Shown: positions 4,824 through 25,058, counted from the stretch's first letter. The stretch is DNA of 32,000 nt from Thermodesulfobacteriota bacterium (GCA_026625185.1 CP113000.1:1275622-1307621), one strand, 5' to 3'. The notes: generated by a model not told the origin, from the sequence alone. A program made the numbers and translations.

Positions 4824-4874
4824 TTAAATCTCCTTTCGCTTTTTGCATTCACTTCTTTTAGGAACCCTCTCTTT

Positions 4875-6362: not shown

Positions 6363-6389
6363 TTGTTTCTTCCTCTCTGCTCAAAAAAC

Positions 6390-6634
6390 TAATTAGTTCA
6401 TCCTGAACAATACGTTCTTTTGATGGAAATTGTTCTTTGAAAACCGAATAGAATTGTGAAATAGGGACCTCCTTGTCTGCCGACAGGCAGGCTATAGTGC
6501 TTTTCCAATGCCTCATGCAAACTGTCCCGGTCAATAAGATTGGCAGCACGCATGAGCTCGTGGTCAGAATCTAATTGATCCGAAAAGATTAACTCAAACA
6601 TCGGAAGTTGCCATTCCGCTATTTTGATTGACAT
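6390..6634 (-). pseudogene. Frameshifted, truncated N-terminal remnant of an IS5-like (DUF772-type) transposase
   Basis: The minus-strand frame gives MSIKIAEWQLPMFELIFSDQLDSDHELMRAANLIDRDSLHEALEKHYSLPVGRQ. This follows the DUF772 N-terminal pattern QLxlFE...L..DHxLr....lIDw..l.e.l...YS..GRp. Homology then appears to continue in another frame (..VPISQFYSVFKEQFPSKERIVQDEL..). No DDE catalytic domain follows. Confidence 0.4.
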
Positions 6635-6782
6635 TTCAATTTATTATATCATGAGATCATCAGAAAAACCGGAGGGTTTTTTGCAATTCTATTCAATTTT
6701 CAAAGAGCCGCTCAGTATTAATAAGGGTTTTAAAGCCTTTTTTCAGGGTGGACTAATTATTAAAAATTTTTTTCTATTTTTA

Positions 6783-9131: not shown

Positions 9132-9219
9132 CTGTGTCCTCCTTAAAATAGCAGTAACGTGCAACCCAATTCAAAATTCCACCTCATTGTCTCACGAAAG
9201 AATAAAAGGCGCGTAACAT

Positions 9220-10248: not shown

Positions 10249-10405
10249 TTCTTCTCTCCTTTTCTTTTGGAATGAGGCAAAATAATACCCTGAAATTCAA
10301 GTCGATGCAGGTCCTTTTTCTTTACAACTAATTGATACTTTATTGTTTTTATCCTAATTTTAATAAAACGTTGGGACACTACTGGCTTACAATAAAAAAA
10401 AAAGC

Positions 10406-10434
10406 TTGACAATTAAAATTATGATAGCTATATT
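10406..10434 (+). promoter_or_regulatory. Sigma70-type promoter, repeat copy 1 (TTGACA-N17-TATATT)
   Basis: The -35 hexamer TTGACA is at 10406-10411 and the -10 hexamer TATATT at 10429-10434, separated by a 17-nt spacer. An A10 run lies immediately upstream in the UP-element position. Confidence 0.55.
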
Positions 10435-10532
10435 GTGATTAAATTGTGAATACGGCCTTTGACCAAAATAAAAGCAAAAGTTTAAAGTCAAAACCGATTT
10501 TCCTATAACAACGGTAAGCGAGAAAAAAAGGC

Positions 10533-10561
10533 TTGACAAGTAAAATTATGATAGCCATATT
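10533..10561 (+). promoter_or_regulatory. Sigma70-type promoter, repeat copy 2 (TTGACA-N17-CATATT)
   Basis: The -35 hexamer TTGACA is at 10533-10538 and the -10 hexamer CATATT at 10556-10561, separated by a 17-nt spacer. An A-run lies upstream. Confidence 0.5.
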
Positions 10562-10658
10562 GTGATTAAATTGTGAATACGGCCTTTGACCAAAATAAAA
10601 GCAAAAGTTTAAATTCAAAAAGGATTTTCATATAACAACGGCAAGGGCGAAAAAAAGC

Positions 10659-10687
10659 TTGACAAGTAAAATTATGATAGCTATATT
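10659..10687 (+). promoter_or_regulatory. Sigma70-type promoter, repeat copy 3, proximal promoter of the bam operon (TTGACA-N17-TATATT)
   Basis: The -35 hexamer TTGACA is at 10659-10664 and the -10 hexamer TATATT at 10682-10687. The predicted TSS is near 10694, which leaves a ~130-nt leader before the bamB ATG at 10825. Confidence 0.65.
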
Positions 10688-10723
10688 GTAATTAAATTGT
10701 GAGTACATTTTAAGCAATTTCAA

Positions 10724-10744
10724 CCTCTATCCGACGGGTGGAGG
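10724..10744 (+). promoter_or_regulatory. Leader stem-loop in the bamB 5' UTR
   Basis: CCTCTATCC-GAC-GGGTGGAGG forms a 9-bp stem (two G.U pairs) with a 3-nt loop. The 3' arm contains a GGAGG SD-like sequence. Confidence 0.3.
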
Positions 10745-10824
10745 AGTTATTGCGGTATGTGTGAGTAATTAATGTTTAGTCAAAAAGTATTTCGCGTGAT
10801 TCAGATAAGAAAGAAGGGAAAAAA

Positions 10825-12789
10825 ATGAGGTACTCAGAGACAGGGTTTAATTTAGAAATTGACCTATCCCGGGGAAACATTGAGAGGGTTGAAACCGACC
10901 CACGATTAACCGAGCTTTATCTGGGGGGTCTCGGTACTAACGCCAAGATATTATGGGATAGGGTTCCCCCAGAAACTGATCCCTTTTCGCCTGACGCTCC
11001 CCTGATTTTCAGTTCAGGCCTTTTAGGCGGCACAATTGCTCCCGGCGCTAATCGCACCATTATTACTGCTTACTCCCCTCAGACTCTTCTAATGGGATTT
11101 TCAATGATGGGGGGATTTTTTGCGCCGGAAATGAAGTATGCCGGATATGACAAAATCATTTTTCGCGGCAAGTCCCCCGATCTGGTCTATTTGTGGATAA
11201 ATAATGACAAAGTAGAAATACGTGATGCCGCTCATCTCCGTGGTAAAGGCGCTGTTGAAACTCAAGACATTATACGGAAGGAGTTGAATCAGCCGAGCGC
11301 CCATGTGGCTGCTATCGGTCTGGCCGGTGAAAACCGGGTCTATACGGCTTCCATCGAGCAGGGCAGGTCCAGCGCCAGCCGGCTCGGATTAGGAGCTGTG
11401 ATGGGAGACAAAGGGATAAAGGCGATAGCTGTTCGTGGGACAAATGACATCAATATTGCTCGGCCGGATGAATTTATAAAGCTTTGCAACGAAGTGCTGG
11501 AATATATAAAATTCCGAAACGCGAATCCGGTTCCGAACATAATGACCATTTTACAGGGGCTTGGTTCACCTCAAGAGATGGTGGAGACTGATGAGAAATG
11601 GCACACCGAGAATTTCAGTTGGGGAAATTCCCGCATTCGTAGAAAAGACTTCTGGACCAAGGAAATTGAAGAGAGATGGAAGAGTGTTCAATTAGATGTG
11701 CGGAAGCGGTTAATTAGCTGCTACAACTGTCCGATGAAATGCGGGGCAATAATTGCCGTCCCGGGACTTTCGATCTATATGATGAAATGCTTCACAAAAC
11801 TAACCTATACAATGGGAGCTTTAGTAGACGACCTGGATTTTGGTTTTAGAATCTCTCAACGCGCTGCGGAATATGGAGTGGACGGATTTTCAACCCCGCA
11901 AATTATGGCCTTCGGCTTCGAGCTTAAAGAAGCCGGCATTTTGACTGACGCGGATTTTGAAGGATGCCCTTCCGATAACGAGGGAAGATTTTACTGGCTC
12001 CTTGACAGAATTGTCCGGCGGGAAGGGATAGGAGATATCCTGGCTGATGGCACGCATTGGGCGGCCAAAAAGATCGGTAAGGGAGCAGAAGCGTACGTTC
12101 ACAACAATATCAAGAAGCATGAGCAGCTGCCTCTTAAGCTTGGAATGCTGAACCCCGTCTATTACCTGATGTATGCCACCGGCGAGAAAGCAAACATAAC
12201 GCAGATTGAAGGGCAGTTCCCCCAGGCGCCTTTCATGACCATGGAGGAAAGAGAAGCATTTGTAAAGGATTGGTTCCAGGTTCCTGATGAAAAGTTTAAA
12301 CAATATGTTCTGGACTGGGAACCGCGGGGAGAGCACTCAAATCCATTGTACCCGACTGTTGACATGTCCGTTGACATTGTTGACTGGCAAGAAAAAATGC
12401 ATTACATTGATGACGCCCTCGGGGTGTGCGCCGGTTTGTCATCATTTCCTCTGAAGCCTCCTTATCATATGCACAATTACCCCCATTTTATCTCATCAGC
12501 GAGCGGGATTGATATGGATGAAACCGGACTAACGGAAGTATATAATAGGAACCGCAATCTGGTTAGAGCCATTAATGTGAGAAGAGGCATGAGGAGAGCC
12601 GATGAGGATCCGCCCGAAGACCATTGGAAGAAAAGATTCCCAGAGCTTGAAAAAAAGCTCCTGGATGCTTATTACAAATTTAAGGGGTGGGATGATGATG
12701 GTATCCCTACGAAAGAGACATTACAGAAATTGGATCTGGGCTACGTTGCCGAAGACTTAGAACAGAGAGGTATTATAAAAAATGGCTAA
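10825..12789 (+). CDS. bamB: Class II benzoyl-CoA reductase active-site subunit BamB (tungsten bis-pyranopterin enzyme, aldehyde:ferredoxin oxidoreductase family)
   Basis: The 654-aa ORF has an AOR-family N-terminus (MRYSETGFNLEIDLSRGNIERVETDP..LYLGGLGTNAKILWD) and the [4Fe-4S] motif LISCYNCPMKCG. Long stretches such as NNIKKHEQLPLKLGMLNPVYYLMY and GLSSFPLKPPYHMHNYP match what I recall of Geobacter BamB. It is followed by the full bamC-I set. Confidence 0.88.
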   Translation: MRYSETGFNLEIDLSRGNIERVETDPRLTELYLGGLGTNAKILWDRVPPETDPFSPDAPLIFSSGLLGGTIAPGANRTIITAYSPQTLLMGFSMMGGFFAPEMKYAGYDKIIFRGKSPDLVYLWINNDKVEIRDAAHLRGKGAVETQDIIRKELNQPSAHVAAIGLAGENRVYTASIEQGRSSASRLGLGAVMGDKGIKAIAVRGTNDINIARPDEFIKLCNEVLEYIKFRNANPVPNIMTILQGLGSPQEMVETDEKWHTENFSWGNSRIRRKDFWTKEIEERWKSVQLDVRKRLISCYNCPMKCGAIIAVPGLSIYMMKCFTKLTYTMGALVDDLDFGFRISQRAAEYGVDGFSTPQIMAFGFELKEAGILTDADFEGCPSDNEGRFYWLLDRIVRREGIGDILADGTHWAAKKIGKGAEAYVHNNIKKHEQLPLKLGMLNPVYYLMYATGEKANITQIEGQFPQAPFMTMEEREAFVKDWFQVPDEKFKQYVLDWEPRGEHSNPLYPTVDMSVDIVDWQEKMHYIDDALGVCAGLSSFPLKPPYHMHNYPHFISSASGIDMDETGLTEVYNRNRNLVRAINVRRGMRRADEDPPEDHWKKRFPELEKKLLDAYYKFKGWDDDGIPTKETLQKLDLGYVAEDLEQRGIIKNG

Positions 12790-13327
12790 GGTTAAGAAGA
12801 AAATCAAGTCAATCAAGATCGATCTTGATAAATGCAATGGTTGCCGGGCATGTGAGGTGATTTGCTCAGCTTTTCATGCGAGCCCGAAATACAGCGGCGC
12901 CAATCCAGGGAGGGCCCGTATTCGGATGATTCGCGACCCGTTAAGAGACGTATATGTTCCTGTATATGCGGGTGAGTATACCCCTGCCGAATGCATGGGC
13001 AGAGACAAATATGTAATTGACGGAAAAGAATACGATGAGTGTGGCTTTTGCAGAGCTTCCTGCCCATCCAGAGACGCCTTCAAAGACCCCGATTCAGGTC
13101 TTCCTCTAAAATGCGATATGTGTGAAGATGATCCGCCGCAAGAAAAGCCCTTGTGTGTTCAGTGGTGTTTAAATGATGCCCTGATTTACGAAGAAAGGGA
13201 AGAGGAAGTAGAAGAAGAAGAAAGTCCTGAGGCCTTGGAGGTTGGGGTTAAAGCATTGACAGACAAATTTGGATTGGACCAGATAATGGATGCCGTTGCC
13301 CGAATGTCAATGTCAAAGAAAGGCTAA
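12782..13327 (+). CDS. bamC: BamC, poly-[4Fe-4S] ferredoxin-like electron-transfer subunit
   Basis: The 181-aa ORF overlaps the bamB stop by 8 nt (ATGGCTAA), implying translational coupling. Cys clusters include CNGCRACEVIC, CGFCRASCP and CDMCEDD..CVQWC, and the tail is acidic. Confidence 0.8.
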   Translation: MAKVKKKIKSIKIDLDKCNGCRACEVICSAFHASPKYSGANPGRARIRMIRDPLRDVYVPVYAGEYTPAECMGRDKYVIDGKEYDECGFCRASCPSRDAFKDPDSGLPLKCDMCEDDPPQEKPLCVQWCLNDALIYEEREEEVEEEESPEALEVGVKALTDKFGLDQIMDAVARMSMSKKG

Positions 13328-13339
13328 TAATCCGTAAGT

Positions 13340-13384
13340 CGTAAAAAGTGAAATGCTTCACCGTCTTACATTTTACGGTTTTTA
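13340..13384 (+). terminator. Terminator-like bulged hairpin + T-run between bamC and bamD (possible partial attenuator)
   Basis: The outer stem pairs CGTAAAA (13340-13346) with TTTTACG (13371-13377). The inner hairpin is GTGAA-ATGC-TTCAC (13348-13361), and GTTTTTA follows. The stem is AU-rich, so at best this is a leaky terminator. Confidence 0.3.
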
Positions 13385-13420
13385 CACCATTAAGGCGAAA
13401 TAAGAGGCTTAAGAAAAACA

Positions 13421-14572
13421 GTGGAGATGGTAGCACCCTTACAAGAAGTAATAGATCTAACAAAAAATGCCGGTGGGGAATCCTTCAAATTCTGCTATCA
13501 ATGCGGATTATGCGATGTTGTTTGTCCGTGGAATAGGGTTAGAACCTTTAGTATGCGCAAGTTAGTCCGGCAGGCTGCGTTTGGTTTGACCGAGATAGAA
13601 CATGAAGAGATATGGCGTTGTACCACTTGCGGAAGATGCCCTCAGCAATGCCCCCGTGGAGTAGAACAGATAAAACTTGGGGTATCCTCGCGCAGAATTG
13701 CCTCGGAATACGGAGTTTTTCCTGCTTCGGTCACTCCGGTGCGCGGGGTAAGCGCAAGTCTTGTTGCCGAAGGCAACCCCTTGGGTGAAGAGCGCCAAAA
13801 GCGGGCAAATTGGGCGGAAGGTCTGTCAGTAAAACCGTTTACCGCGGGGATGGAAATTTTGTATTTTCCCGGCTGCTACTTAAGCTATGACCCGAGATTA
13901 AAAAAGGTATCCCGAGCCACTGCCACCATCCTTAAAAAGGCAGGGGTAGATTTTGGGATATTGGGTGCCAAGGAGAACTGTTGTGGAGAAAGCATCCGCA
14001 AGACTGGCAATGAGGAAGTATTCAAACAATTAGCCAGGGAAAACATCAAAACTTTTATTGATAATGGGGTGAAGAAAATTTTGGTTTCTTCTCCTCATTG
14101 CTACCACACTTTCAAAAACGAGTACCCCGAATTCATGGTGAACTTCGAGGTGGTTCATATCGCCCAATACTTATTCGATCTTATTAACGAGGGAAGGCTT
14201 GCGATCACCAAGGAGTATGGGAAGAAAATTACCTATCATGATCCCTGTTACCTGGGCCGACATAACGGCATATTTGACCAACCCCGAGAGGTCTTAAAGA
14301 AGATACCCGGCATAGAACTGAATGAGATGCCGGATTCGCGAAAAAATAGTCTCTGTTGCGGCGGCGGCGGAGGCCGGATTTGGATGGAAACTCCAAAGGG
14401 TGAGCGATTCTCCGACCTCAGAGTAGTGCAAGCTGTTGGCGTCGGAGCTGACGTTTTGGTTACTTCCTGCCCTTACTGCATTTCAATGTTTGAAGACAGC
14501 AAGTTAACTCTGAAGGATAGTGATGCCTTAGAGATTAATGACATCACGGAAATTATCCAGGAAGTGATTTAG
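13421..14572 (+). CDS. bamD: BamD, HdrD-like subunit (2x[4Fe-4S] ferredoxin domain + two CCG domains)
   Basis: The 383-aa ORF contains CYQCGLCDVVCP and CTTCGRCPQQCP motifs. Two CCG-domain motifs follow (GAKENCCGES...SSPHCYH and SLCCGGGGGRIW...TSCPYCISM). The start could be GTG 13421 or ATG 13427. Confidence 0.85.
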   Translation: MEMVAPLQEVIDLTKNAGGESFKFCYQCGLCDVVCPWNRVRTFSMRKLVRQAAFGLTEIEHEEIWRCTTCGRCPQQCPRGVEQIKLGVSSRRIASEYGVFPASVTPVRGVSASLVAEGNPLGEERQKRANWAEGLSVKPFTAGMEILYFPGCYLSYDPRLKKVSRATATILKKAGVDFGILGAKENCCGESIRKTGNEEVFKQLARENIKTFIDNGVKKILVSSPHCYHTFKNEYPEFMVNFEVVHIAQYLFDLINEGRLAITKEYGKKITYHDPCYLGRHNGIFDQPREVLKKIPGIELNEMPDSRKNSLCCGGGGGRIWMETPKGERFSDLRVVQAVGVGADVLVTSCPYCISMFEDSKLTLKDSDALEINDITEIIQEVI

Positions 14573-14590
14573 AGGACAAAGAAGTTAAAC

Positions 14591-15388
14591 ATGCAAGAAG
14601 CGATTGACGTATCAGCCCTGAAAGGTGTAGTAGCGGGCATGACCTGTGATCGGTTTTCAGACGAGGGATGGGTGAGGACCTCAGTTTACGCGCCTAGTGA
14701 GATGCAACTGAAAATTTATATAAATCAGCAGGAACTGGTCTCCATCCTGTGCACTCCAACCAAGCTGAATTGCCTTGCCTTCGGGTTCCTGTACACCGAG
14801 GGAATCATCTCCGGCATCGGCGACGTGGCGGGCATGCGGGTGTGTGAGGATGACTCGCTGGTCGATGTGAGGCTGAGCAAAACCGAGTTTAAATTGCCGA
14901 CCCTGCGGACACTTACCTCTGGGTGCGGTGGCGGTGCAATTTTCAAAACTGAGGGACAAAGGGTTGATTCTGGTCTTACTGTTACACCAACGGAAGTGCT
15001 GGCGCTGATGAAAAAGCTTCAAGGGCAGATGCAACTCTTTCGGCTTAGCGGCGGCGTGCACACTTCAGCTCTGTCCGATACCAGGAACCTGTTGGTGGTG
15101 GCTGAGGATATCGGACGGCATAACACCTTTGACAAGATTCAGGGCGAATGTCTATTGAGGAAACTATCAACCAAAGATCGACTGGTACTAACCACCGGTC
15201 GCGTTTCGTCCGAGATGTTGCTCAAGGCGGCAAAGATGAAGGTACCGGTTGTTGCAACCCGGCACTCGCCGACGGAGCGAGCTATTTCGCTTGCTCTTGA
15301 TCTGGGTATTGCTTTGGTTGGCTATGCCCATGGAAACAGTCTGTCGGTCTATTCCCACCCGGAACGACTTGGGTGGTCGACAAATTAG
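14591..15388 (+). CDS. fdhD: FdhD-family sulfurtransferase/cofactor-insertion protein, embedded in the bam operon
   Basis: The 265-aa ORF carries the FdhD hallmarks GGVHTSAL, EDIGRHNTFDKIQG and VVATRHSPTERAI. Its Cys loop reads LTSGCGGGAIF, with a single Cys where E. coli-type FdhD has SSCGVCG. Confidence 0.8.
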   Translation: MQEAIDVSALKGVVAGMTCDRFSDEGWVRTSVYAPSEMQLKIYINQQELVSILCTPTKLNCLAFGFLYTEGIISGIGDVAGMRVCEDDSLVDVRLSKTEFKLPTLRTLTSGCGGGAIFKTEGQRVDSGLTVTPTEVLALMKKLQGQMQLFRLSGGVHTSALSDTRNLLVVAEDIGRHNTFDKIQGECLLRKLSTKDRLVLTTGRVSSEMLLKAAKMKVPVVATRHSPTERAISLALDLGIALVGYAHGNSLSVYSHPERLGWSTN

Positions 15389-15454
15389 GTGTATGGCTAA
15401 CCCGACGGACGGCGGATATCACAGAAACAAAAAAACCGGATAAGGTGATAGAAA

Positions 15455-18400
15455 GTGGAAAATGTAATAATGCTCAAAGAAAATATTCAAGAACTTGGTA
15501 AAACTCTTGGAGCCAATAGTGTTGGCGATGTCATGATTATAGGTGGAGGGATCAGCGGTATTCAAGCGTCTCTTGATCTTGCCAATGCGGGTTTTAAGGT
15601 TTACCTGGTTGAGAAAGCGCCGTCCATTGGGGGCCATATGGCCCAGCTTGACAAGACCTTTCCAACCAATGACTGCTCAATGTGAATACTTGCACCCAAA
15701 CTGGTCGAGGTCGGCCGGCATCCCAATGTAGAAGTCCTCACCTATACTGAAGTTGAGAGTGTAGCAGGGGAAGTAGGAAACTTTAAGGTAACCCTGGTTA
15801 AAAAGCCCAGGTATATTCTAGAGGACAAATGCACGGGCTGTACTACCTGTGTAGAGTACTGCCCGGTCAAATACCCTGATCAATATAATCAGGAAATATC
15901 GAAGAATAAGGCAGTCCATGTATATTTCGCTCAGGCGATTCCACTTATCACTTATATAGATGAAAGCTGTCTTTATCTTAAAGAGGGCAAATGTCGTATT
16001 TGCGAAGCAGTATGTAAGAATAAGGCGATAGATTTCAATCAAACGCCGGAAAAGGAAGAAGTAAGTGTAGGGGCGATCATTCTGGCTCCCGGCCTTGAGC
16101 CGTTTGATCCTAAGGTAAGGGAGGAATATCGGTACGGAGAGTTTCAGAACGTGGTAACCAGTATGGACTATGAGCGACTGTTATGCTCCACCGGACCATA
16201 CCAAGGTGAGATACTCCGTGCTTCCGACCTGAAGCATCCCCATAAAATAGCTTGGATTCAATGCGTCGGTTCCAGACAGGTTATCGAGGGCGGTAACAGC
16301 TATTGTTCAGCCGTATGCTGCACGTATACCCAGAAACAGGCGATTTTGACAAAGGATCATGATGCCGGGGCAGAGTGTGTAATATTTCATAATGATATTC
16401 GTTCCTATGGGAAGGATTTTGAGCGATTCTACGAAAGGACCGAGAAACTTCCCGGGGTTCGATTTATCAGGAGCTACACATCAATTGTTAAGGAGAACCC
16501 GGAAACCAAGAATGTCACCATACGGTATTCTACACCCGATGATGGAGTAAAAGAGGAAGAATTCGATATGGTGGTACTGTCCGTCGGATTGAATCCTCCT
16601 GCGGATGTATTGGACCTGGCAAAAAAATTCGGCATTAAACTAAATCCTCACGATTTTTGCAACCTCAATCCTGTCAATCCTATGGAGACCAACAGGCCTG
16701 GGATCTTTGTAAGCGGAGGTTTCCAGGGACCTATAGATATTCCCGAGTCGGTTTTCAGCGCCAGCGGGGCCAGCTCCCAAATTGGTGAGCTTCTTGACTA
16801 CCGGCGAGGAATTCTTTCCAAAGAAAGGATCTATCCGCCGGAAAGGGATGTCTCCAAAGAGGATCCAAGGATAGGGGTCTTTGTGTGTCATTGTGGGGCT
16901 AATATCGGAAGGATAGTCAATGTTCCTGAAACAGTTGAATATTGCAAATCCTTACCCAATGTTGTCTACGCCCAGGAGCAGCTGTTTTCCTGCGCTACTA
17001 ATTCCGCCAAAGAAATAACGGACATGATCAAAGAAAAAGGGCTCAATCGAGTGATTGTCGCCGCCTGCTCGCCCAGGACCCTTGAGCCGCTATTCCGGGA
17101 TACTGTTCGGGAGGCAGGAATCAATCAATACTACTTTGAAATGGCAAACATTAGGGAGCATAACTCCTGGGTCCACTCGAAAGAAAAGGAAGAAGCCTCC
17201 GAAAAGGCACATGATATAATCCGGATGTCGGTAGCGCGAGCCTGCCATTTGGAGCCATTACAGGAATTTGATCTACCGGTCAACAAGGCGGCGTTAGTGG
17301 TTGGAGGAGGGATAGCCGGCATGACTAGTGCTCTCTCCATAGCCAACCAGGGGCATGAGGTTCACCTGCTGGAAAAGGATACAGAGCTTGGGGGAATAGC
17401 ACGGAGAATTCATGATACGCTGGAAGGACTGGATGTTCAGGCGTATTTGCGCGATCTGATAAGAAAGGTATATCAACACCCTTTAATACATGTATATCAT
17501 GATACCACCATCACCGGGGCGACAGGTTATGTGGGAAATTTCGTAACCAAGGTGAAGTCTGACAGAGGAGTCACAGAGATAAAACATGGCGCATCCGTCA
17601 TCGCAATAGGGGTTGATGTATATAAACCTGCCGAATACCTTTATGGAGAAGACGACCGGGTCTTGACCCATCTCGAGTTGGAGGAACAGATCACCAAAGG
17701 AAACGAAAAGGTGATTAACGCAGAAAGTCTCGTGATGATACAATGCGTGGGCTGCAGAAATGAGGAGAGAAATTATTGCAGCAGGCTGTGCTGCAGCGAG
17801 TCGGTCAAAAACGCTTTGAAACTGAAAAAAATAAACCCCAAAATGAATATTTACATCCTCTTTCGGGATATAAGAACATATGGATTCAAAGAGGATTATT
17901 ACCGGGAAGCTGCGGATAAAGATGTAAAGTTCATTCGCTATGAACCGGAAGATCCACCGGAGGTGAAAGCTGTTAAAGATGGCGGTAAGAGCATTCTAAA
18001 GGTTTCCTTGCCGGATTATATTTTAGGGCAGAAGCTTGAAATAGATGCGGATATCATTTCCCTGGCCGCCGCTGTTGTTCCTTCTTCAGCCACCAAGGAG
18101 GTCGCCGGATTATTCAAGGTGACTTTGAGCCCGGATGGCTTCTTCAAAGAAGCCCATGTTAAATTAAGACCGGTTGAGTTTGCTACCGACGGCGTTTACC
18201 TTTGTGGATTGGCCCACTATCCTAAGTTTATGCAGGAAACGATTAACCAGGCTTATGGAGCTGCTGGCCGGGCCTTAACGCTTTTGTCACACGATATCGT
18301 CATCGCCTCCGGCTCGGTTTGCGGGGTGGATGAGAATAGGTGTGTTTCATGCGGGGCATGTATCACCGTTTGCACCTATGGCGCCATAGAGTTTTATGAT

Positions 18401-18583
18401 ACCCCCCAGGGCAGAAAGGCCAGGGTTAACCCGGTTCTCTGCAAAGGAGATGGTCTTTGTAACACGGTGTGTCCGACAGCGGCTATTTCACTAAAGCACT
18501 TTACCGATGAAGAGATCTTGAGCCAAATTGATGCGGCGGTTCCGGAGGAAGAGATCATACAAAAAATTGAGGCTGCCGCCTGA
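15455..18583 (+). CDS. bamE: BamE, HdrA-like flavo-iron-sulfur selenoprotein; in-frame TGA 15683-15685 read as selenocysteine
   Basis: The start GTG 15455 is preceded by AAGGTGA-N6. The frame is open from 15455 to 18583 apart from one TGA. I translated 15686-16150 by hand and found no stop ([23 protein letters not shown]...[12 protein letters not shown]...[15 protein letters not shown]...[12 protein letters not shown]). The track ORFs 15455-15685 and 16151-18583 are in the same frame. The TGA lies in [14 protein letters not shown], a position I recall as Cys or Sec in HdrA. There are two FAD GxGxxG modules ([17 protein letters not shown] and [17 protein letters not shown]). The product is 1042 aa. 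Confidence 0.85.
15701..15718 (+). other. Candidate bacterial SECIS hairpin for the bamE UGA
   Basis: The hairpin begins 15 nt after the UGA. It reads CUGGUC-GAGGUC-GGCCGG, a 6-bp stem with two G.U pairs. The apical loop contains GGUC, the loop sequence I recall from the E. coli fdhF SECIS. Confidence 0.45.
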
Positions 18584-18653
18584 TGCCGATGGTGAAGGAT
18601 GTATAGAATTTTATGAATAAAGCCGGGATTACTAACTAAGGAGGTAAGAAAGA

Positions 18654-19421
18654 ATGATTTCAGGACTCAAATTTAAGCCAAGATTAATAGGTTTCGTATG
18701 CCACTGGTGAGCATACGGGGCTGCTGACCTGGCTGGAGTTTCCAGACTGCAATATACCACTGAAATGAGGCTTATTCGCGTCATGTGCACCGGCAGAGTC
18801 GACTTGGAACATGTACTCCGGGCTTTCTCGAAGGGAGTGGATGGGGTATTTATTGGCGCCTGCCATCTAAATGAATGTAACTATATTACTCATGGCAACT
18901 ACCATGCATTAACCATGGTGAATATATGTAAAAAAATAATGGAAAACATTGGCCTGAATCCTGAAAGATTAAGGATCCGATTCATGTCCGGCGCTGAAGC
19001 AAGCCTTTTTGTAGAATCTGTTAATGAGTTTGTCAAGACGGTGAAGGAAATAGGCCCCCTTGGCAAAGTCGAAGGAATAAACAAGAATGCATTAAAGGCC
19101 AAGCTTGAGGCCGTGACACAGCTAGTCCCCTACATCAGGTTGGTGGAAAGGGAGAGGCTGCGATTACCTTTTAAATCGGAAGAAGAATATAATAATTTTT
19201 TCACCAGTGACGAATTCAACAAGTTATTTAATGAGTTAATTGTAGAAAAATTGGCAATAAGCCAAATAACCTCACTCTTGCGGGAAAGACCCCTTTCGGC
19301 TGGTAAAATCTCTGAATATTTAGGCCTAGCCCCGTCTGAGGTTTCAAGATACATGAATACTTCATCAAGGCAGGGATTAGTCAGGTATGATGAAGGCCGC
19401 AATTGCTTCGCTCTTGCCTAA
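18654..19421 (+). CDS. bamF: BamF, MvhD-like [2Fe-2S] selenoprotein with C-terminal winged-helix-like extension; TGA 18708-18710 read as selenocysteine
   Basis: The start ATG 18654 has a strong SD (AAGGAGG at 18638-18644). It is in frame with the track ORF that starts at 18765. The N-terminus reads MISGLKFKPRLIGFVCHW-U-AYGAADLAGVSRLQYTTEMRLIRVMCTGRVD. This aligns with the MvhD motif FCCNWCSYAGADLAG, with Sec at the last Cys. The product is 255 aa. Confidence 0.82.
18728..18745 (+). other. Candidate bacterial SECIS hairpin for the bamF UGA
   Basis: The hairpin lies 18-35 nt after the UGA. One fold is CUGGA-GUU-UCCAG (18733-18745). An alternative fold pairs CUGG (18729-18732) with CCAG (18742-18745) and leaves a 9-nt loop containing GG and GU. 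Confidence 0.4.
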
Positions 19422-19451
19422 CCCCGATACACGGGATAAATACGTTAACGA

Positions 19452-19486
19452 AATTATTTTCTGCCGGAAAAACGCAGAAAATAATT
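19452..19486 (+). other. Perfect 13-bp inverted repeat between bamF and bamG (RNA hairpin or palindromic protein-binding site)
   Basis: AATTATTTTCTGC (19452-19464), loop CGGAAAAAC, then GCAGAAAATAATT (19474-19486). No T-run follows, so it is not a classic terminator. Confidence 0.6.
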
Positions 19487-19528
19487 CCTGACATACTAAG
19501 GTGAAAGAGGCAGATTAGGAAAGCGACT

Positions 19529-19981
19529 ATGAATAAAGGTAGAGTCGATCAAATTATAGAAAAGCATCATGGCGAAGCCAGTTCGCTCATTCAAGTACTA
19601 CTGGAGATTCAGAGTGAGCATCATTGGCTTCCCAAGGAAGCATTAGATAGGATCAGCGAAAAATTACAAGTTCCTTTAACCAGGATACTTTATATAGCCA
19701 CCTTCTATAAAGCCTTTAGTTTAGTTCCTAAAGGACGTCATGAAGTTCACGTTTGTGTTGGTACTGCCTGTCATGTTCGCGGCGCGCCGCGTATCCTTGA
19801 CACGGTGCAAGACCTGACTGGAATTAAACCCGGCGAAACGGACGCAGATTTGAAGTTTAGCCTGGAGACTGTTAATTGCCTCGGCTGCTGTGCTTTAGGA
19901 CCGGTGTTGGAAGTCAATGGAAAGACTTACGGTAACATGGGGCCATCCAAGACCGCAGAGGTGTTAAAAAACTACGAATAA
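19529..19981 (+). CDS. bamG: BamG, NuoE/HoxE-like [2Fe-2S] subunit
   Basis: The 150-aa ORF has thioredoxin-like [2Fe-2S] motifs CVGTACHVRG and CLGCCALGP. Confidence 0.85.
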   Translation: MNKGRVDQIIEKHHGEASSLIQVLLEIQSEHHWLPKEALDRISEKLQVPLTRILYIATFYKAFSLVPKGRHEVHVCVGTACHVRGAPRILDTVQDLTGIKPGETDADLKFSLETVNCLGCCALGPVLEVNGKTYGNMGPSKTAEVLKNYE

Positions 19982-19990
19982 GGAAAAATT

Positions 19991-21919
19991 ATGTTAAGGA
20001 TAAACTCCCCTGAGGAGTTAGAAAAACTCAGACAAGAAATTTTATCCCGGAGTGACCCAAGCAAACCTTGCATTTCAATATGCGCTGGCGCCGGTTGTCT
20101 TGCTTCCGGTGCAGGTGAAGTTATAGCCGCCTTTAAAGCAGAGATTGAAAAGCAAGGCTTAACGACGGATGTGAATACCAAAGGAACCGGGTGCCCTGGA
20201 TTTTGTGAAAGAGGACCCGTTGTGATTATTTATCCTGAGGAGATATGTTATCTCCGGGTAAAGCCTGATGACGTTCCCGAGATTATCTCACAGACTATAA
20301 GGGAAAAAAGGGTTGTCGACCGTCTATTATATGTTGACCCAACCACCGGCGAAAAAGCAATTCATGAATCCGACATCCCCTTTTATAAGAATCAAAAACG
20401 AAATCTTATCAGCTATAATAGTAAGATTGATTCCAAGAGCATTGATGACTATTTGGCGATCGGTGGTTATTCCGCATTAGCTAAAGTCCTTTTCAAGATG
20501 ACCGCCGAGCAAGTATTGGAAGAAGTCAAAAAATCCAACCTGAGAGGAAGGGGGGGTGGCGGCTTTCCCGCAGGGAATAAGTGGGAGGGATCCCGCAATG
20601 CTCCTGAACCAATCAAATATGTGCTCGTCAATGCCGATGAGGGTGACCCTGGGGCATTTATGGATAGAGCTCTCCTTGAAGGAAACCCTCATTCAATCCT
20701 TGAGGGATTGACTATTGGAGCTTACGCTATCGGCTCCCACGAGGGTTATATTTACGTGAGGCAGGAATATCCCTTAGCGGTAGTAAATGTGAACATCGCC
20801 ATCAGGCAGGCCGAGGAATATGGTTTGCTTGGGAAGAACATACTCGGGTCTGGTTTTGATTTCACTGTTAAAGTTCACCAGGGAGCCGGCGCTTTTGTCT
20901 GTGGTGAATCAACGGCTTTGATGACGGCATTGGAAGGCAGGGCAGGAGAGCCCAGACCGAAGTATATCCGCTCCAACATCGTGGGCCTTTGGGGTCGGCC
21001 CACCGTTTTGAATAATGTTGAGACCTGGGCAAATGTGCCGCTTATCATCAATAAGGGCGCAGATTGGTTTACTCAATTTGGAACTGAAAAGAGCAAGGGC
21101 ACGAAGATCTTTTCCCTGGTTGGGAAGATAACCAATACCGGGCTTGTGGAAGTGCCCATGGGCATCACCCTGAGAGATATTATTTACAAGATAGGCGGTG
21201 GAATCCCAGGAGGCAAGAAGTTCAAAGCCGTGCAGACCGGGGGACCGTCCGGAGGATGTATCCCTGAGAAACTGTTAGATTTGGAAGTTGGTTTTGATGA
21301 ACTCACCAAGGCCGGTTCAATGATGGGTTCAGGTGGGATGATCGTAATGGATGAAGATACCTGTATGGTTGACGTCGCCAGGTACTTTCTTAACTTCCTC
21401 ATCGATGAATCGTGCGGCAAATGCACCCCATGCCGTGAAGGCATCAGGCAGATGCTTAAGATTCTCACTAATATCACTAAAGGAAAGGGAAAAGAGGGCG
21501 ACATCGAGCTTTTGGAGGAATTAGCCGAAGTAGCCATCGATGCCTCACTATGTGCTTTAGGGAAGAGTGCCCCTAACCCGCTTCTCAGCACGGTGCGATA
21601 CTTCAGAGATGAGTATGAGGCACACGTCAAGGAGAAAAGGTGCCCGGCTTTATCCTGCAAGGAGCTGATCGCGTACCATATTGACCCGAGTAAGTGCCAG
21701 GCATGTATGATTTGCCTTAAGAAGTGCCCTGCCGACGCTATTGAAGGCGGCAAGAACCGGATCCATGTAATTGACCAGGGAAAATGCACAAAGTGCGGAA
21801 CTTGCATTGAAGTTTGCCCCGCTCGCTTTGGTGCTGTAAATAAGATTTCAGGCCAGCCTGTTCCGGCTCCTATCCCTGAAGATGCAAGAACTTTAGTCAG
21901 AAAGAGTAAAGAACAATGA
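19991..21919 (+). CDS. bamH: BamH, NuoF/HoxF-like FMN- and NAD(P)H-binding iron-sulfur subunit
   Basis: The 642-aa ORF has an N-terminal thioredoxin-like [2Fe-2S] domain (CAGAGCLASG...CPGFCERGP). It also carries the FMN/NADH motifs GRGGGGFPAGNKW and ADEGDPGAF, the [4Fe-4S] motif ESCGKCTPCREG, and a C-terminal 2x[4Fe-4S] ferredoxin (CQACMICLKKCP and CTKCGTCIEVCP). Confidence 0.88.
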   Translation: MLRINSPEELEKLRQEILSRSDPSKPCISICAGAGCLASGAGEVIAAFKAEIEKQGLTTDVNTKGTGCPGFCERGPVVIIYPEEICYLRVKPDDVPEIISQTIREKRVVDRLLYVDPTTGEKAIHESDIPFYKNQKRNLISYNSKIDSKSIDDYLAIGGYSALAKVLFKMTAEQVLEEVKKSNLRGRGGGGFPAGNKWEGSRNAPEPIKYVLVNADEGDPGAFMDRALLEGNPHSILEGLTIGAYAIGSHEGYIYVRQEYPLAVVNVNIAIRQAEEYGLLGKNILGSGFDFTVKVHQGAGAFVCGESTALMTALEGRAGEPRPKYIRSNIVGLWGRPTVLNNVETWANVPLIINKGADWFTQFGTEKSKGTKIFSLVGKITNTGLVEVPMGITLRDIIYKIGGGIPGGKKFKAVQTGGPSGGCIPEKLLDLEVGFDELTKAGSMMGSGGMIVMDEDTCMVDVARYFLNFLIDESCGKCTPCREGIRQMLKILTNITKGKGKEGDIELLEELAEVAIDASLCALGKSAPNPLLSTVRYFRDEYEAHVKEKRCPALSCKELIAYHIDPSKCQACMICLKKCPADAIEGGKNRIHVIDQGKCTKCGTCIEVCPARFGAVNKISGQPVPAPIPEDARTLVRKSKEQ

Positions 21920-22542
21920 GTGAAATCATTTTACAGATAGATGGAAAAGAAGTCAAAGCAAAGGAAGGGATGACCGTTTTGGAGGCAGCCCAAAGCGCGG
22001 GGATATCCATACCCACACTCTGTCACCATGAAAAATTGGAACCCTATGGGGGTTGCCGACTTTGTATCGTAGAAGTAGAAGTTCGCGGCTGGACACAGCT
22101 CGTTGTTTCCTGTGTTTACCTGGCGGCAAAAAATTTGATTGTAAGAACTAGATCTGAGAAGGTAGATAGAATTCGCAAAATGATCTTAGAACTATTGCTG
22201 GCTCATGCCCCGGATGCTTTCGAATTGCAGGATTTGGCTAAAGAGTATGGAGCAGACAAAGACCGTTTTGAAAAAGAGTCCTCATTTTGCATTCATTGTG
22301 GTCTATGTGTAAGATATTGTGCTGAGGTCAAGAAGAAGAATGCGGTTGGATTTGTTGACAGAGGAACAAGGAAAGAGATCAGTTTCATTCCAGGGATAGC
22401 ATCTAAGGAATGCTGGAACTGCAAGGAATGTTTTCCGCTTTGCCCTACAGAGGCCTTACAAGCAGCTTTCGTTTTAACCAAAGCGCTCATTTCCTCCCCA
22501 CCCTCCTCCGAACTTGTGTCAGTGGGAATAGGCAAAGATTAA
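21916..22542 (+). CDS. bamI: BamI, NuoG N-terminal-like [2Fe-2S]/[4Fe-4S] subunit
   Basis: The 208-aa ORF has a start that overlaps the bamH stop (ATGA). It begins with a plant-type [2Fe-2S] region (IPTLCHHEKLEPYGGCRLCIVEV), followed by CIHCGLCVRYC and CWNCKECFPLCP. Confidence 0.8.
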   Translation: MSEIILQIDGKEVKAKEGMTVLEAAQSAGISIPTLCHHEKLEPYGGCRLCIVEVEVRGWTQLVVSCVYLAAKNLIVRTRSEKVDRIRKMILELLLAHAPDAFELQDLAKEYGADKDRFEKESSFCIHCGLCVRYCAEVKKKNAVGFVDRGTRKEISFIPGIASKECWNCKECFPLCPTEALQAAFVLTKALISSPPSSELVSVGIGKD

Positions 22543-22733
22543 TATACTTTTTCATGGGTGGGAACAATGCTTATTGCAGTAATCGGTCATTCCAGTGAAA
22601 ATGAAACTTCATACTATCGCTGCGAAATTTTCAATACAAAGTGATCATTTTATGGTGATCAAGGATTAGTACTGGATTCCTGGTCCCTAATGGAATGATC
22701 CCAAAAGCTTTTTTTTAGATAGGAGGGAAAGTC

Positions 22734-23507
22734 ATGCAGAAGGTAACGTGTGAAAAAATGTTTGATAATCAGGTATGGAAGATTATTCTTAATGATCCCA
22801 AGGGGAATGTGGTTGATTCCATTATGTTAAAGGGATTTCAGGAGGTGCTTGATGAGGTTTCAAAAGAAAAGCATTGCAAATTAATTATTTTTCAGGGCGC
22901 CGGAAGTCATTTTTCCTTTGGAGTGAGTGTGGAGGAACATACCGAAAAACTGGCCGCAGGAATGCTGGCAAGCTTTCACGACTTATTTATTAGGTTAACT
23001 GATTTAGGGATACCGGTTTGCTCTCTGATCTCCGGACAGTGTCTTGGTGGGGGAGTAGAGATCGCCACTTTCGCTCATTTTGTTTTCGCTGATGAGACTG
23101 CCCGGATTGGTCAGTCAGAAGTCGCTCTTGCAGTTTTTGCTCCCCCGGCATCAGTGATATTGCCCCTTAAAGTCGGCCATATGCATGCAGAAGATATTCT
23201 CCTTACCGGTAGAAGCCTTACTGCACAGGAAGCCAAGCAAATGGGACTTTTAAACGAGGTTTATCCTGATAAGAGTACGATGGAACAAAAGGTGAACGAA
23301 TGGATTCAGCAGCAGATTCTTCCTAAGAGTGCTTTCGCCTTAAAGGTGGCCACAAAACAAGTCCGCAAACGCTTCAATGAACGATTAAAGGAAGATTTAC
23401 GGTTTTACGAATCAGTTTATATGAATGAGCTCATGAAGTCTCATGATGGTAAGGAAGGTTTGAACGCGTTTTTAGAGAAAAGGAAACCGGTTTGGACCGA
23501 TGATTAA
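22734..23507 (+). CDS. Crotonase-family enzyme, most likely cyclohexa-1,5-diene-1-carbonyl-CoA hydratase (Dch/BamR-like)
   Basis: The 257-aa ORF has a strong SD (AGGAGGG-N6-ATG). Its motifs GAGSHFSFGVSVEEH, GQCLGGGVEIA, LAVFAPPAS and MNELMKSHDGKEGLNAFLEKRKPVW match my recollection of Thauera Dch (GPHFSFGASVDEH, GQCLGGGLE, LGVFAPAAS, ...EGLKAFLEKR). It lies directly downstream of the bam genes. Confidence 0.65.
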   Translation: MQKVTCEKMFDNQVWKIILNDPKGNVVDSIMLKGFQEVLDEVSKEKHCKLIIFQGAGSHFSFGVSVEEHTEKLAAGMLASFHDLFIRLTDLGIPVCSLISGQCLGGGVEIATFAHFVFADETARIGQSEVALAVFAPPASVILPLKVGHMHAEDILLTGRSLTAQEAKQMGLLNEVYPDKSTMEQKVNEWIQQQILPKSAFALKVATKQVRKRFNERLKEDLRFYESVYMNELMKSHDGKEGLNAFLEKRKPVWTDD

Positions 23508-23540
23508 TTTTTTAAAACAACAGGCGCTGAAGTAATATGA

Positions 23541-23569
23541 GAAAGCCCATCCGGGCTTTCTTTTTATTT
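23541..23569 (+). terminator. Rho-independent terminator of the bam-dch transcription unit
   Basis: GAAAGCCC-ATCC-GGGCTTTC forms a perfect 8-bp stem with a 4-nt loop. TTTTTATTT follows immediately. Confidence 0.85.
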
Positions 23570-23906
23570 ATAATTTATTGGCTCACATAACTCCATATCT
23601 TCCCAGACAAAAATACCGATGCCAACCACCGGCGGTTTGTCTCCTGCAGGAGTCGGCATGCCTTTAGCATAATAGGTAGCAACGATTCCCGACAGCGTTT
23701 TCTTAGCCAAAGGCACAAGTTTTGTTACATAATATTCCTTATCAAATCTCTCTCCCGCCGGTGGTTGGTAGTAAATTGCCTTAGTTTAATCATTGATTGC
23801 TCCTTTACCAAAATTAGATGATTTCCTCTGTCAGCCAGATTTTGCCAGCAATCATCCTCCACCGATCTACCCAAATGAGATTGCCAATAACTACATCCAA
23901 TTGAAA

Positions 23907-25058
23907 TTATTTTAGGTTTCCCAGAATTTCTCGGCCAATAATGATTTTCTCTACCTCCTTTGTCCCTTCATAAATTTCCAAGACTTTGGCAGCCCGGTAA
24001 AATCGTTCAATGTCCTGATCATTGAAATACCCATAACCCCCATGGAGCTGCAGCGACTCATCCACCATTTCTACCGCAACATGACAGGCATAAAGTTTGG
24101 CCATCGCGGTCAGTTTCGTGTCGGGCCGGCCCTGGTCAAGTAACCACGCTGCCTTGTAAACCATGTTGCGGGCAGTCTCAACCTTGGTTGCCATCTCAGC
24201 TATTTTAAACTGAGTAACCTGAAAGGCTCCCAGGGGCTGGCCAAACTGTTTCCGCTCTTTGACGTGTTTGATTGCCATGTCCAGCGCCCCTTGAGCAAGT
24301 CCCACGGCATGTCCAGCCACATAGGCCCGGGATCGGTCAAAAAAATTCATCAGTTGAATAAATCCGTTTCCTTCCTTACCAATGAGATTTTCTTGGGGAA
24401 CCCGGACATCGGTGAAATAGATGCTGGCGGTGTCCGAACACCTTATCCCCATTTTCCCTTCCATCCGGTCGGCTTCGTAGCCTTTGCGATTAGTTTCCAG
24501 CAGAATAATGCTGTGGCGGCCGGTCTTGGATTTCTCTTCCGGATTGGTAAGGCAATAGACGAGCATATGGGTTCCTTTGGTGCCATTGCTGATCATGACT
24601 TTGCTGCCGTTAATAACATAGTCATTGCCGTCTTTTACCGCCGTGGTTGAAGCAGCAGCGGTGTCACTTCCGGCATCGGGTTCGGTGATGGCAAAACCAA
24701 AGATCGTGTTACCCTCAAAAATGGGGGGCAAAAATTTCTTTTTCTGTTCCTCGGTTCCGTAAAGAAGCAGCTCTTCGACGCCAAAACTAATGGTGCAAAG
24801 CTGCTGGCCAATGCCGGGGTCTACCCTCCAAAACTCCTCTAAAACCATCGCCTGTTCCAGATACCCGAACCCAGGCCCGCCGTATTCTTCAGGAATAAAA
24901 AGACCGACCAGACCGAGTTCCTTTGCTTTCTTGATTATCTCTTCGGGAAAGGTCTCGTTTAAATCATACTCACGGGCAACATCGGTAAACTCCCCAACCG
25001 CAAAATCCCGTGCTGCTTTTTTGATGTCTCTTTGTTCATTAGTTAAATCAAAATTCAT
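23907..25058 (-). CDS. Acyl-CoA dehydrogenase (short/medium-chain ACAD type; substrate not assignable)
   Basis: The 383-aa ORF has an SD (AAGGAGG-N7-ATG). ACAD motifs include FAITEPDAGSD, GSKVMISNG and QLHGGYGY, with the catalytic Glu in EIYEGTKEV. Confidence 0.88.
   Translation of the reverse strand: MNFDLTNEQRDIKKAARDFAVGEFTDVAREYDLNETFPEEIIKKAKELGLVGLFIPEEYGGPGFGYLEQAMVLEEFWRVDPGIGQQLCTISFGVEELLLYGTEEQKKKFLPPIFEGNTIFGFAITEPDAGSDTAAASTTAVKDGNDYVINGSKVMISNGTKGTHMLVYCLTNPEEKSKTGRHSIILLETNRKGYEADRMEGKMGIRCSDTASIYFTDVRVPQENLIGKEGNGFIQLMNFFDRSRAYVAGHAVGLAQGALDMAIKHVKERKQFGQPLGAFQVTQFKIAEMATKVETARNMVYKAAWLLDQGRPDTKLTAMAKLYACHVAVEMVDESLQLHGGYGYFNDQDIERFYRAAKVLEIYEGTKEVEKIIIGREILGNLK

Follow-up and report, generated by a model that had tools for sequence, protein, structure and literature searches.

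Class II benzoyl-CoA reductase has been described in Geobacter metallireducens, where it is encoded as BamBCDEFGHI (Gmet_2087-2080) and structures of BamBC are available (PDB 4Z3W-4Z40). BamDEF of this complex resemble HdrABC and MvhD of the MvhAGD-HdrABC complex. BamGHI are similar to NuoEFG and to WorABC of the class IV WorABCSL complex, in which WorL and WorS are the counterparts of BamB and BamC. Unlike either complex, Bam acts on an aromatic ring rather than a heterodisulfide or an aldehyde, and its BamB has a protein cysteine ligand to tungsten. The electron-bifurcation route is a proposal for the Geobacter enzyme as well (PMC12096430).

A second described arrangement, bamB-bamC-bamD-fdhD-bamE-bamF, is found in Desulfoscipio (Desulfotomaculum) gibsoniae DSM 7213 (CP003273, our locus L084), and is shared by clusters of related Peptococcaceae and deltaproteobacterial MAGs. 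The locus reported here has the same order, and the D. gibsoniae proteins are 75% (FdhD), 75% (BamB), 73% (BamD) and 80% (BamE) identical to those studied here. D. gibsoniae differs in having oah, dch and had 5' of bamB and no bamGHI after bamF, which is instead followed by a second bamBCD-E copy without fdhD. A full BamBCD-FdhD-EFGHI set with 73-87% identity is present in another relative (L086).

The window, a stretch of 32,000 nucleotides, belongs to the genome of ORM2a ("Candidatus Anaerobenzenivorax"), as judged from exact protein matches (WAC08761, WAC08763, WAC08766, WAC08768). ORM2a is a methanogenic benzene degrader with a closed genome (PMC13101534). The same report (Appl Environ Microbiol 2026) describes OS130_06105-06150 as one cluster for BamBCD, an FdhD chaperone, BamEFGHI and BamR. 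Proteomes of a culture degrading benzene contained all ten products, with 6-91 spectra each; BamQ (OS130_04055) and BamA (OS130_14410), encoded outside the cluster, were abundant, with 103 and 143 spectra (PMC13101534). The locus is therefore real but ordinary, since the exact cluster is already in the literature with protein-level evidence, and the original prediction was right not to claim novelty for the system as such. It had also described the host as an anaerobic degrader of aromatic compounds, and had named bamA and bamQ as genes to look for in the rest of the genome. The description of the host holds, because the window is from ORM2a and BamQ and BamA are expressed in the benzene-degrading culture. 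In a text search, PMC13101534 was found to make no mention of selenocysteine, SECIS elements or promoters, and it does not discuss how widespread fdhD is in bam clusters.

Gene content and order

Ten co-directional genes occupy positions 10,825 to 23,507 of the + strand, in the order bamB, bamC, bamD, fdhD, bamE, bamF, bamG, bamH, bamI and a crotonase gene, with intergenic distances of -8, 93, 18, 81, 70, 107, 9, -4 and 191 nt. Products were assigned to domain families with Pfam and NCBIfam models, and BamD to BamI have the domains expected of these subunits. Gene positions, order and direction, together with the strong terminator, were all recovered where they had originally been placed. The eight subunit types of G. 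metallireducens are all shared and in the same order, and BamC to BamI are collinear with and 56-74% identical to the proteins of Geobacter-type loci, which supports the assignment as BamBCDEFGHI. The identical bam gene order was found again in dozens of species-level genomes, so the arrangement is not due to chance. We are highly confident that the region is a single bam operon of ORM2a, encoding the class II complex BamBCDEFGHI, a dienoyl-CoA hydratase of the Dch/BamR type and an FdhD-like accessory protein. Compared with G. metallireducens, only the ORM2a locus has an fdhD-like gene separating bamD from bamE, a dch/bamR gene joined to the operon end and a triplicated putative promoter.

Catalytic subunits

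The bamB gene (10825..12789, + strand) encodes a 654-residue protein (exact match to WAC08761.1), the predicted tungsten-pterin catalytic subunit of class II benzoyl-CoA reductase. As Pfam finds only AFOR_N and AFOR_C in this protein, and NCBIfam has no BamB-specific model, its best match there being a generic AOR model far under its cut-off, we considered whether the enzyme is no ring reductase but an electron-bifurcating aldehyde oxidoreductase of generic type, namely a class IV WOR whose partners are Hdr/Nuo-like. The comparison with proteins of known structure speaks strongly against it. Residues 1-653 match G. metallireducens BamB (PDB 4z3w_A) with 1119.8 bits, whereas the top-scoring generic aldehyde oxidoreductase (1aor_A) reaches 207 bits, and identity to the crystallised BamB is 71.9% over 651 residues. 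The protein thus falls in the BamB clade, as originally predicted, and not among generic AORs. Pathway context and expression data also disfavour an aldehyde oxidoreductase, as does Cys322, a ligand to tungsten that is confined to the clades of BamB and YdhV. We give this alternative hardly any credence, and consider it effectively refuted by the scores.

Cys322 is the protein ligand to tungsten and has a defining role (PMC12096430). Alignment to homologues showed that it is kept in the ORM2a protein together with Glu251, Glu257 and His260, as in G. metallireducens, and that cysteine is present at the aligned position in 84/86 BamB-like sequences. The Zn site and proton conduit comprise Glu251, His255, Glu257 and His260, of which a 2025 review describes His255 as invariant in the Zn site. 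ORM2a BamB has Thr at position 255, where G. metallireducens has His, and Glu at 254. Of the 86 homologues, 45 have His at 254, 14 have it at 255 and 27 have it at neither position, which means that His255 is not strictly invariant. Since the position varies across BamB homologues, Thr255 is a weak objection to the benzoyl-CoA reductase reading.

The substrate could also be another aryl-CoA, for example a substituted benzoyl-CoA from benzene activation, if the protein were a BamB-type paralogue. Many genomes do contain several BamB paralogues (49-59% identical in L038, L046 and L045; a second copy with 68.6% identity in L034). We nevertheless regard this as very unlikely, given the high identity to a characterised BamB with key active-site residues kept. 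Furthermore, bamB (OS130_06105) is the only gene of ORM2a to which KEGG K19515 (bamB) maps, and its product is expressed together with the enzymes that act on the product of benzoyl-CoA reduction, BamR, BamQ and BamA.

The bamC gene (12782..13327, +) overlaps bamB by 8 nt and encodes a poly-ferredoxin subunit of 181 residues with 12 cysteines, predicted to hold three [4Fe-4S] clusters. It is 62.4% identical to Geobacter BamC (PDB 4z3w_E, 257.9 bits).

Electron-transfer subunits and proposed mechanism

BamD (13421..14572, +; 383 aa, GTG start) is an HdrD-like Fe-S protein with two CCG domains and a Fer4_8 4Fe-4S dicluster domain in Pfam. It matches WAC08763.1 exactly and is 63-80% identical to BamD of related bam loci. 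BamE (15470..18583, +; 1037 aa) is a double HdrA-like FAD/Fe-S protein, which the HdrA2 model matches in 3 stretches with 940 bits. BamF (18654..19421, +; 255 aa) is FlpD/MvhD-like (PF02662, 157 bits), with an HTH-like region at the C-terminus (HTH_5, residues 204-244), and is collinear with Geobacter-type BamF over residues 1-255. BamG (19529..19981, +; 150 aa) is a NuoE-like [2Fe-2S] subunit (PF01257, 169.8 bits). BamH (19991..21919, +; 642 aa; exact match to WAC08766.1) is a NuoF-like FMN/NAD-binding subunit (Complex1_51K, NADH_4Fe-4S and Fer4; nuoF_fam, 479.9 bits), with an additional N-terminal 2Fe-2S domain and C-terminal 2x[4Fe-4S] domain. BamI (21916..22542, +; 208 aa), encoded with a 4-nt overlap with bamH, is a truncated NuoG-like Fe-S subunit (Fer2_4, Fer4_7 and Fer4_Nqo3). 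BamGHI are collinear with their counterparts in Geobacter-type loci at 68-71% identity.

Catalytic activity, metal content and bifurcation route of the ORM2a complex are inferred by analogy with the Geobacter enzyme. Reduction would be ATP-independent and carried out by a complex containing W, Se, Fe-S clusters and flavin. BamDEF (HdrABC/MvhD-like, with FAD and with Sec in BamE and BamF) and BamGHI (NuoEFG-like, with FMN) would bifurcate electrons from reduced ferredoxin, sending one energetically uphill to BamB while its partner drops to NAD+ and/or a different acceptor of high potential. BamC, with its chain of [4Fe-4S] clusters, would relay electrons to BamB. At a W-bis-pyranopterin site with Cys322 as ligand, BamB is predicted to reduce benzoyl-CoA, yielding cyclohexa-1,5-diene-1-carbonyl-CoA. 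The dienoyl-CoA would next be hydrated by BamR, and the ring would be opened by BamQ and BamA.

Selenocysteine codons

Both bamE and bamF contain an in-frame TGA. In bamE it is codon 72 (15683-15685). At this codon, 45 homologues have TGA and 10 have TGC or TGT, Geobacter-type loci having cysteine (TGC) where ORM2a has selenocysteine. In bamF it is codon 19 (18708-18710), which is TGA in 46/46 homologues, and Geobacter has selenocysteine at the same position.

A SECIS-like hairpin (15701..15718, +; CUGGUCG-AGGU-CGGCCGG) begins 18 nt past the first UGA base of bamE. Over its 6 codons, third-codon-position entropy in 40 distinct sequences is close to 0, compared with 0.8-1.8 for the codons on either side, and the motif is absent from Cys-type bamE genes. 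One sequence has a compensatory change from G-C to C-G, and two have a change from G-U to A-U. The candidate hairpin of bamF (18733..18745, +; CUGGA-GUU-UCCAG) begins 25 nt past the first UGA base and appears in the minimum-energy fold; third-position entropy in 44 sequences is 0-0.5 in codons +24 to +36, and about 1-1.6 in the flanks. Single-sequence folding gave no significance on its own (z = 0.02 and 0.51), and an Rfam search found no family at threshold. Because homologues have TGA or a cysteine codon at these positions, and because the synonymous sites of the hairpins are frozen in some 40 species, the UGAs are, as judged by comparative analysis, genuine selenocysteine codons. The predicted in-frame UGAs of the HdrA-like and MvhD-like genes are thus borne out.

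fdhD within the bam operon

The gene at 14591..15388 (+; 265 aa) encodes a homologue of Mo/W-cofactor sulfurtransferases/chaperones (PF02634, 224.9 bits) that matches PDB 2pw9 and 4pde. Its single cysteine lies in an SGCGG loop, whose counterparts in the alignment are the Cys loop of 2pw9 and, in E. coli FdhD, the CXXC loop. The presence of fdhD in bam clusters is the remaining under-explored point of this locus.

The same bamD-bamE slot is occupied by fdhD in 9/53 species-level loci, and in 3/3 sampled database relatives (L084-L086), which include Bacillota. Across phyla, the protein is 73-75% identical, on a par with BamB, BamD and BamE. In L026, L029, L045 and L060, FdhD-like genes also neighbour genes of the BamB type, with other arrangements. 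The placement between bamD and bamE is probably no accident, and because the slot recurs and conservation matches that of the Bam subunits, these comparisons suggest a Bam-specific role in cofactor maturation.

Alternatively, the gene may be unrelated to Bam and incidentally located, its product maturing the formate dehydrogenases of ORM2a for syntrophic formate transfer. The FdhD equivalog model recognises the protein above its cut-off (TIGR00129, 167.2 bits, cut-off 140.9), several FDH-like genes are present elsewhere in ORM2a (including OS130_09745 and OS130_12470), and bis-MGD, which every FdhD/FdsC protein characterised so far binds, is not the cofactor form used by BamB. Against this, no FDH gene was found in the 32,000-nt window, and the recurrent placement, neighbourhoods and conservation described above, in which the conserved partner is the Bam cluster, also count against an incidental location. 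We take the formate dehydrogenase explanation seriously, but lean somewhat towards a role in Bam maturation.

The Dch-like hydratase

The crotonase gene (22734..23507, +) adjoins bamI on the 3' side. Its product (exact match to WAC08768.1) is assigned to K07537 and was detected with 49 spectra in ORM2a. The best NCBIfam match is TIGR03189 with 214.1 bits, about 80 above the runner-up family (135 bits). This score is under the curated Dch equivalog cut-off of 292.5, and five relatives likewise score 220-235 bits. A 54%-identical relative (P0090) is preceded by a Zn-ADH (349 aa) and a long crotonase (362 aa), corresponding to a had-oah-dch arrangement, and its locus also adjoins BcrAD/HGD-D genes. 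Best match and context of relatives agree with the hydratase that had been predicted; since the equivalog cut-off is missed, the protein stays "Dch-like".

Putative transcription signals

Upstream of bamB lies a 127-bp tandem repeat (10397..10706, +) of 2.5 copies with 92% identity, which probably acts as the promoter region. It contains three sites that resemble sigma-70 promoters and come close to the consensus: TTGACA-17-TATATT occurs twice (10406 and 10659) and TTGACA-17-CATATT once (10533). Related species have one CTTGACA promoter-like site about 100-130 nt 5' of bamB, in contrast to the three found here.

At the other end of the operon, an intrinsic terminator-like hairpin (23539..23572, +) starts 32 nt past the crotonase stop codon. 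It consists of a 10-bp stem, in which 5 of the pairs are G-C, and a T-run after it (TTTATTTATA); with stem and T-run at 23539-23562, it was the top-ranked such site in 10200-24000. The hairpin also reads as a terminator for a convergent gene on the - strand.

Identity of the reductase and its operon

Class II benzoyl-CoA reductases carry out, free of ATP, reductions that are among the lowest-potential ones in biology, and they are central to how benzene and other aromatic pollutants are broken down without oxygen. Ten co-directional genes on the plus strand at 10825-23507 had been assigned to such a system by eye. The layout was fully confirmed, and Pfam and NCBIfam returned exactly the same families. 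In order, the genes are bamB (10825-12789, 654 aa, AFOR_N and AFOR_C domains), bamC (12782-13327, 181 aa, poly-ferredoxin), bamD (13421-14572, 383 aa, GTG start, HdrD-like with two CCG domains and a 4Fe-4S dicluster), an fdhD-like gene (14591-15388, 265 aa, FdhD-NarQ), bamE (15470-18583, 1037 aa, double HdrA-like flavoprotein, in-frame TGA at 15683), bamF (18654-19421, 255 aa, FlpD/MvhD, in-frame TGA at 18708), bamG (19529-19981, 150 aa, NuoE-like), bamH (19991-21919, 642 aa, NuoF-like with extra Fe-S domains), bamI (21916-22542, 208 aa, short NuoG-like) and a BamR/Dch-like crotonase gene (22734-23507, 257 aa). Successive genes are separated by -8, 93, 18, 81, 70, 107, 9, -4 and 191 nt. The strong terminator predicted after the crotonase gene was also recovered, as the top terminator-like site of the region (10-bp stem and T-run, 23539-23562), directly 3' of that gene.

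Since NCBIfam has no BamB-specific model, and the sole match was to a generic AOR model far under its cut-off, we turned to PDB comparison for BamB. The 654-aa protein aligned end to end with the crystallised BamB of Geobacter metallireducens (4Z3W chain A, 1119.8 bits, 71.9% identity), but reached only 207 bits with the best genuine aldehyde oxidoreductase, and BamC matched 4z3w_E with 257.9 bits and 62.4% identity. Cys322, Glu251, Glu257 and His260 are all retained. Cys322 is the protein W ligand that sets BamB (and YdhV) apart from other AOR/WOR enzymes (PMC12096430). The class II reading of the original prediction is thus supported against that of a generic AOR.

Position 255 is a threonine, next to Glu254 (residues 250-260, window 11573-11604). 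A 2025 review terms His255 of the BamB Zn site invariant (PMC12096430). Of 86 BamB-like sequences, 45 have the histidine at 254, 14 have it at 255 and 27 have it at neither, and Thr255 therefore looks like ordinary variation. It had been considered as a sign of a non-BamB paralog, an idea rejected because the position is widely variable among clear BamB orthologs.

A scan with one genome per species found at least 591 BamB relatives, and among the 80 best loci, which we compared, the subunits recur in the same order. In Geobacter-type loci, BamB to BamI are 56-79% identical to those of the window and collinear. The collinearity includes the C-terminal HTH-like part of BamF, which was for this reason dismissed as a novelty.

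Exact sequence matches identify BamB as WAC08761.1, BamD as WAC08763.1, BamH as WAC08766.1 and the crotonase as WAC08768.1, all from a 3,300,546-bp Thermodesulfobacteriota MAG. The same accessions appear in Table 2 of a 2026 report in Appl Environ Microbiol on strain ORM2a ("Candidatus Anaerobenzenivorax"), which comes from a methanogenic consortium that degrades benzene (PMC13101534). There, the ten products are assigned to one cluster, annotated as a Bam-type reductase with BamR and an FdhD chaperone; proteomics detected every one of them (6-91 spectra each), and the KEGG table assigns K19515 (bamB) to OS130_06105 only (PMC13101534). Genes for the later pathway enzymes, for which the original prediction looked to the rest of the genome, are present, so the objection that they might be missing falls away: BamQ (OS130_04055) and BamA (OS130_14410) are encoded elsewhere in ORM2a and are abundant (PMC13101534). 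The finding stands, as does its interpretation, and both are in the literature already. This locus is the one that a key methanogenic degrader of benzene uses; with its sequence, annotation and expression on record, finding it again adds little.

From the homologous Geobacter enzyme (PMC12096430), we infer that benzoyl-CoA would be reduced at the W-bis-MPT site of BamB, with BamC as the wiring to the remaining complex. BamDEF (Hdr/MvhD-like, with FAD and Sec) and BamGHI (NuoEFG-like, with FMN) would bifurcate electrons from ferredoxin, to the W center at very low potential on one side and to NAD+ and/or a further high-potential acceptor on the other, and the product would be hydrated by BamR. 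The whole complex would measure roughly 1 MDa.

Selenocysteine codons in bamE and bamF

Selenocysteine and promoters are not mentioned in the ORM2a report (PMC13101534). The present analysis adds comparative proof of two Sec codons and their SECIS hairpins, the recurrence of an fdhD-like gene in bam clusters and a triplicated predicted promoter. At the position of the bamE TGA, 45 homologs also have TGA, and 10, mostly Geobacter-type, have TGC or TGT; at that of the bamF TGA, all 46 homologs compared have TGA. The Sec-bearing peptides read ...DCSMU(72)ILAPK... in BamE and ...GFVCHWU(19)AYGAADLAGVSR... in BamF.

With Rfam at gathering thresholds, no riboswitch or SECIS family was detected anywhere in the window, and the 60 nt that follow each UGA, folded as single sequences, scored no better than shuffled sequences (z = 0.02 and 0.51). 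Because the folding was not significant, we adopted a comparative analysis of synonymous sites. The bamE hairpin (CUGGUCG-AGGU-CGGCCGG, window 15701-15718) spans six codons, in which third-position entropy is near zero, compared with 0.8-1.8 bits in flanking codons (40 distinct sequences). Its stem shows a compensatory G-C to C-G exchange in one sequence and a G-U to A-U exchange in two, and Cys-type bamE genes have a different peptide at the site and no hairpin. The bamF hairpin (CUGGA-GUU-UCCAG, window 18733-18745) is frozen in much the same way. Together, the aligned TGA/Cys codons and the frozen hairpins mark both UGAs as real Sec codons with predicted SECIS-like elements, the comparative analysis being decisive.

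An FdhD-like gene between bamD and bamE

The fdhD insertion is the only feature of the locus with residual novelty, and the one lead worth an experiment. An FdhD gene lies in the bamD-bamE slot in 9 of the 53 loci that have both genes. The gap between bamD and bamE measures 876-954 nt in these 9 loci and -9 to 455 nt in the other 44. Loci with this arrangement (L004, L005, L012, L014, L016, L017, L018, L020, L025 and L084-L086) are spread over Thermodesulfobacteriota, Bacillota (D. gibsoniae DSM 7213) and a Chloroflexota-assigned MAG, which shows that one widespread kind of bam cluster has the FdhD-like gene as a conserved part across phyla.

Each of the 120 best database matches to the window FdhD shares at least 71% identity with it, and together they form a tightly conserved subfamily. 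Three contexts of such relatives were sampled (Desulfoscipio gibsoniae DSM 7213, a Peptococcaceae contig and a 1-Mb ENA contig), and all three have the order bamB-bamC-bamD-fdhD-bamE-bamF. FdhD is 73-75% identical to its relatives there, in the same range as BamB, BamD and BamE.

FdhD-like genes were also found elsewhere, within 10 kb of bamB, in four further loci. The cultured Syntrophorhabdus aromaticivorans UI (L029) has two tandem copies after bamF (18153-19724), the first devoid of Cys over its entire sequence, and another locus (L045, 18076-21036) has a copy beside a 59%-identical BamB paralog. The FdhD-like genes of these two loci are more distant (27-31% identity).

The fixed slot across phyla and the subunit-like conservation suggest a Bam-linked role, most simply in maturation of the W cofactor. 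Against a Bam-specific FdhD, bis-MGD is the cofactor handled by characterised FdhD proteins, the BamB cofactor is W-bis-MPT with water as the sixth ligand (PMC12096430), and FDH genes exist elsewhere in ORM2a. On balance, we regard it as possible, if rather doubtful, that the FdhD-like protein is dedicated to maturing the W cofactor of BamB, as its chaperone and/or as sulfur donor. If it were, the FdhD family would serve not only bis-MGD formate dehydrogenases but also an AOR-family enzyme with W-bis-MPT, and assembly of the BamB active site, possibly including the nature of the sixth W ligand, would not be fully understood. As a concrete candidate for BamB cofactor maturation, FdhD could aid heterologous production of the enzyme.

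The GenBank version of this FdhD (WAC09094.1, 228 aa) starts at Met38 and leaves out window 14591-14701. Alignments with homologs from at least five other species begin at residue 1 of the 265-aa form, so the longer reading frame from 14591 is probably correct. In L014 (13698-14496), the bam-linked fdhD is divided between two frames (tblastn segments for residues 1-74 and 75-265), reflecting either a frameshift or a sequencing error.

Crotonase, upstream repeats and flanking genes

The best NCBIfam family for the crotonase is the Dch equivalog TIGR03189 (214 bits, runner-up family 135 bits). The curated cut-off is 292.5, so the protein stays outside formal Dch membership, as do five of its relatives, which likewise score under the cut-off. 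PDB yielded only generic crotonases and no Dch structure for this protein. GGGVE and GQSE, which we take to be the two catalytic Glu motifs, are kept in the translation. The context of a 67%-identical relative (P0079) was uninformative. In a 54%-identical one (P0090), the crotonase gene follows those for a Zn-dependent alcohol dehydrogenase (349 aa, Had-like) and a long crotonase (362 aa, Oah-like), and the set adjoins BcrAD/HGD-D benzoyl-CoA-reductase-like genes and a CoA ligase. This gene context supports a predicted Dch function.

The stretch just upstream of bamB (10397-10706) consists of 2.5 tandem copies of a 127-bp unit, at 92% identity. Each repeat carries a predicted near-consensus sigma-70 promoter (TTGACA-17-TATATT/CATATT at 10406, 10533 and 10659), and each unit also has a direct repeat, TGTGA-N6-TGTGA, and an inverted motif, TTTGAC...GTCAAA. 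Related species have a single CTTGACA promoter-like site upstream of bamB. A blastn search of 80 related loci with the 576-bp upstream region did not find the repeat and gave one weak match, to the last 115 nt only. The repeat may have tripled the promoter and so raised bam expression, or it may be a problem of assembly; a triplicated predicted promoter may account for the high expression of the operon.

Immediately upstream and divergent, four minus-strand genes (3507-10248) encode Ycf48/BNR-like, RND/MMPL transporter, DUF1302 and DUF1329 proteins. This set resembles the highly expressed 'Nanopod' cluster proposed for benzene transport, with differing accessions (PMC13101534), and has no counterpart near bamB in 86 other loci. 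Downstream, convergent with the bam operon, an acyl-CoA dehydrogenase gene (23907-25058, minus strand) adjoins one for a NarI-like membrane domain fused to an HdrD-like Fe-S/CCG protein (25201-27183, minus strand). Full-length relatives of this fusion (30-37% identity) lie directly after bamF in seven loci without bamGHI (L001, L003, L011, L037, L047, L054 and L063), a placement that hints at a different output module for class II reductases, one linked to quinones.
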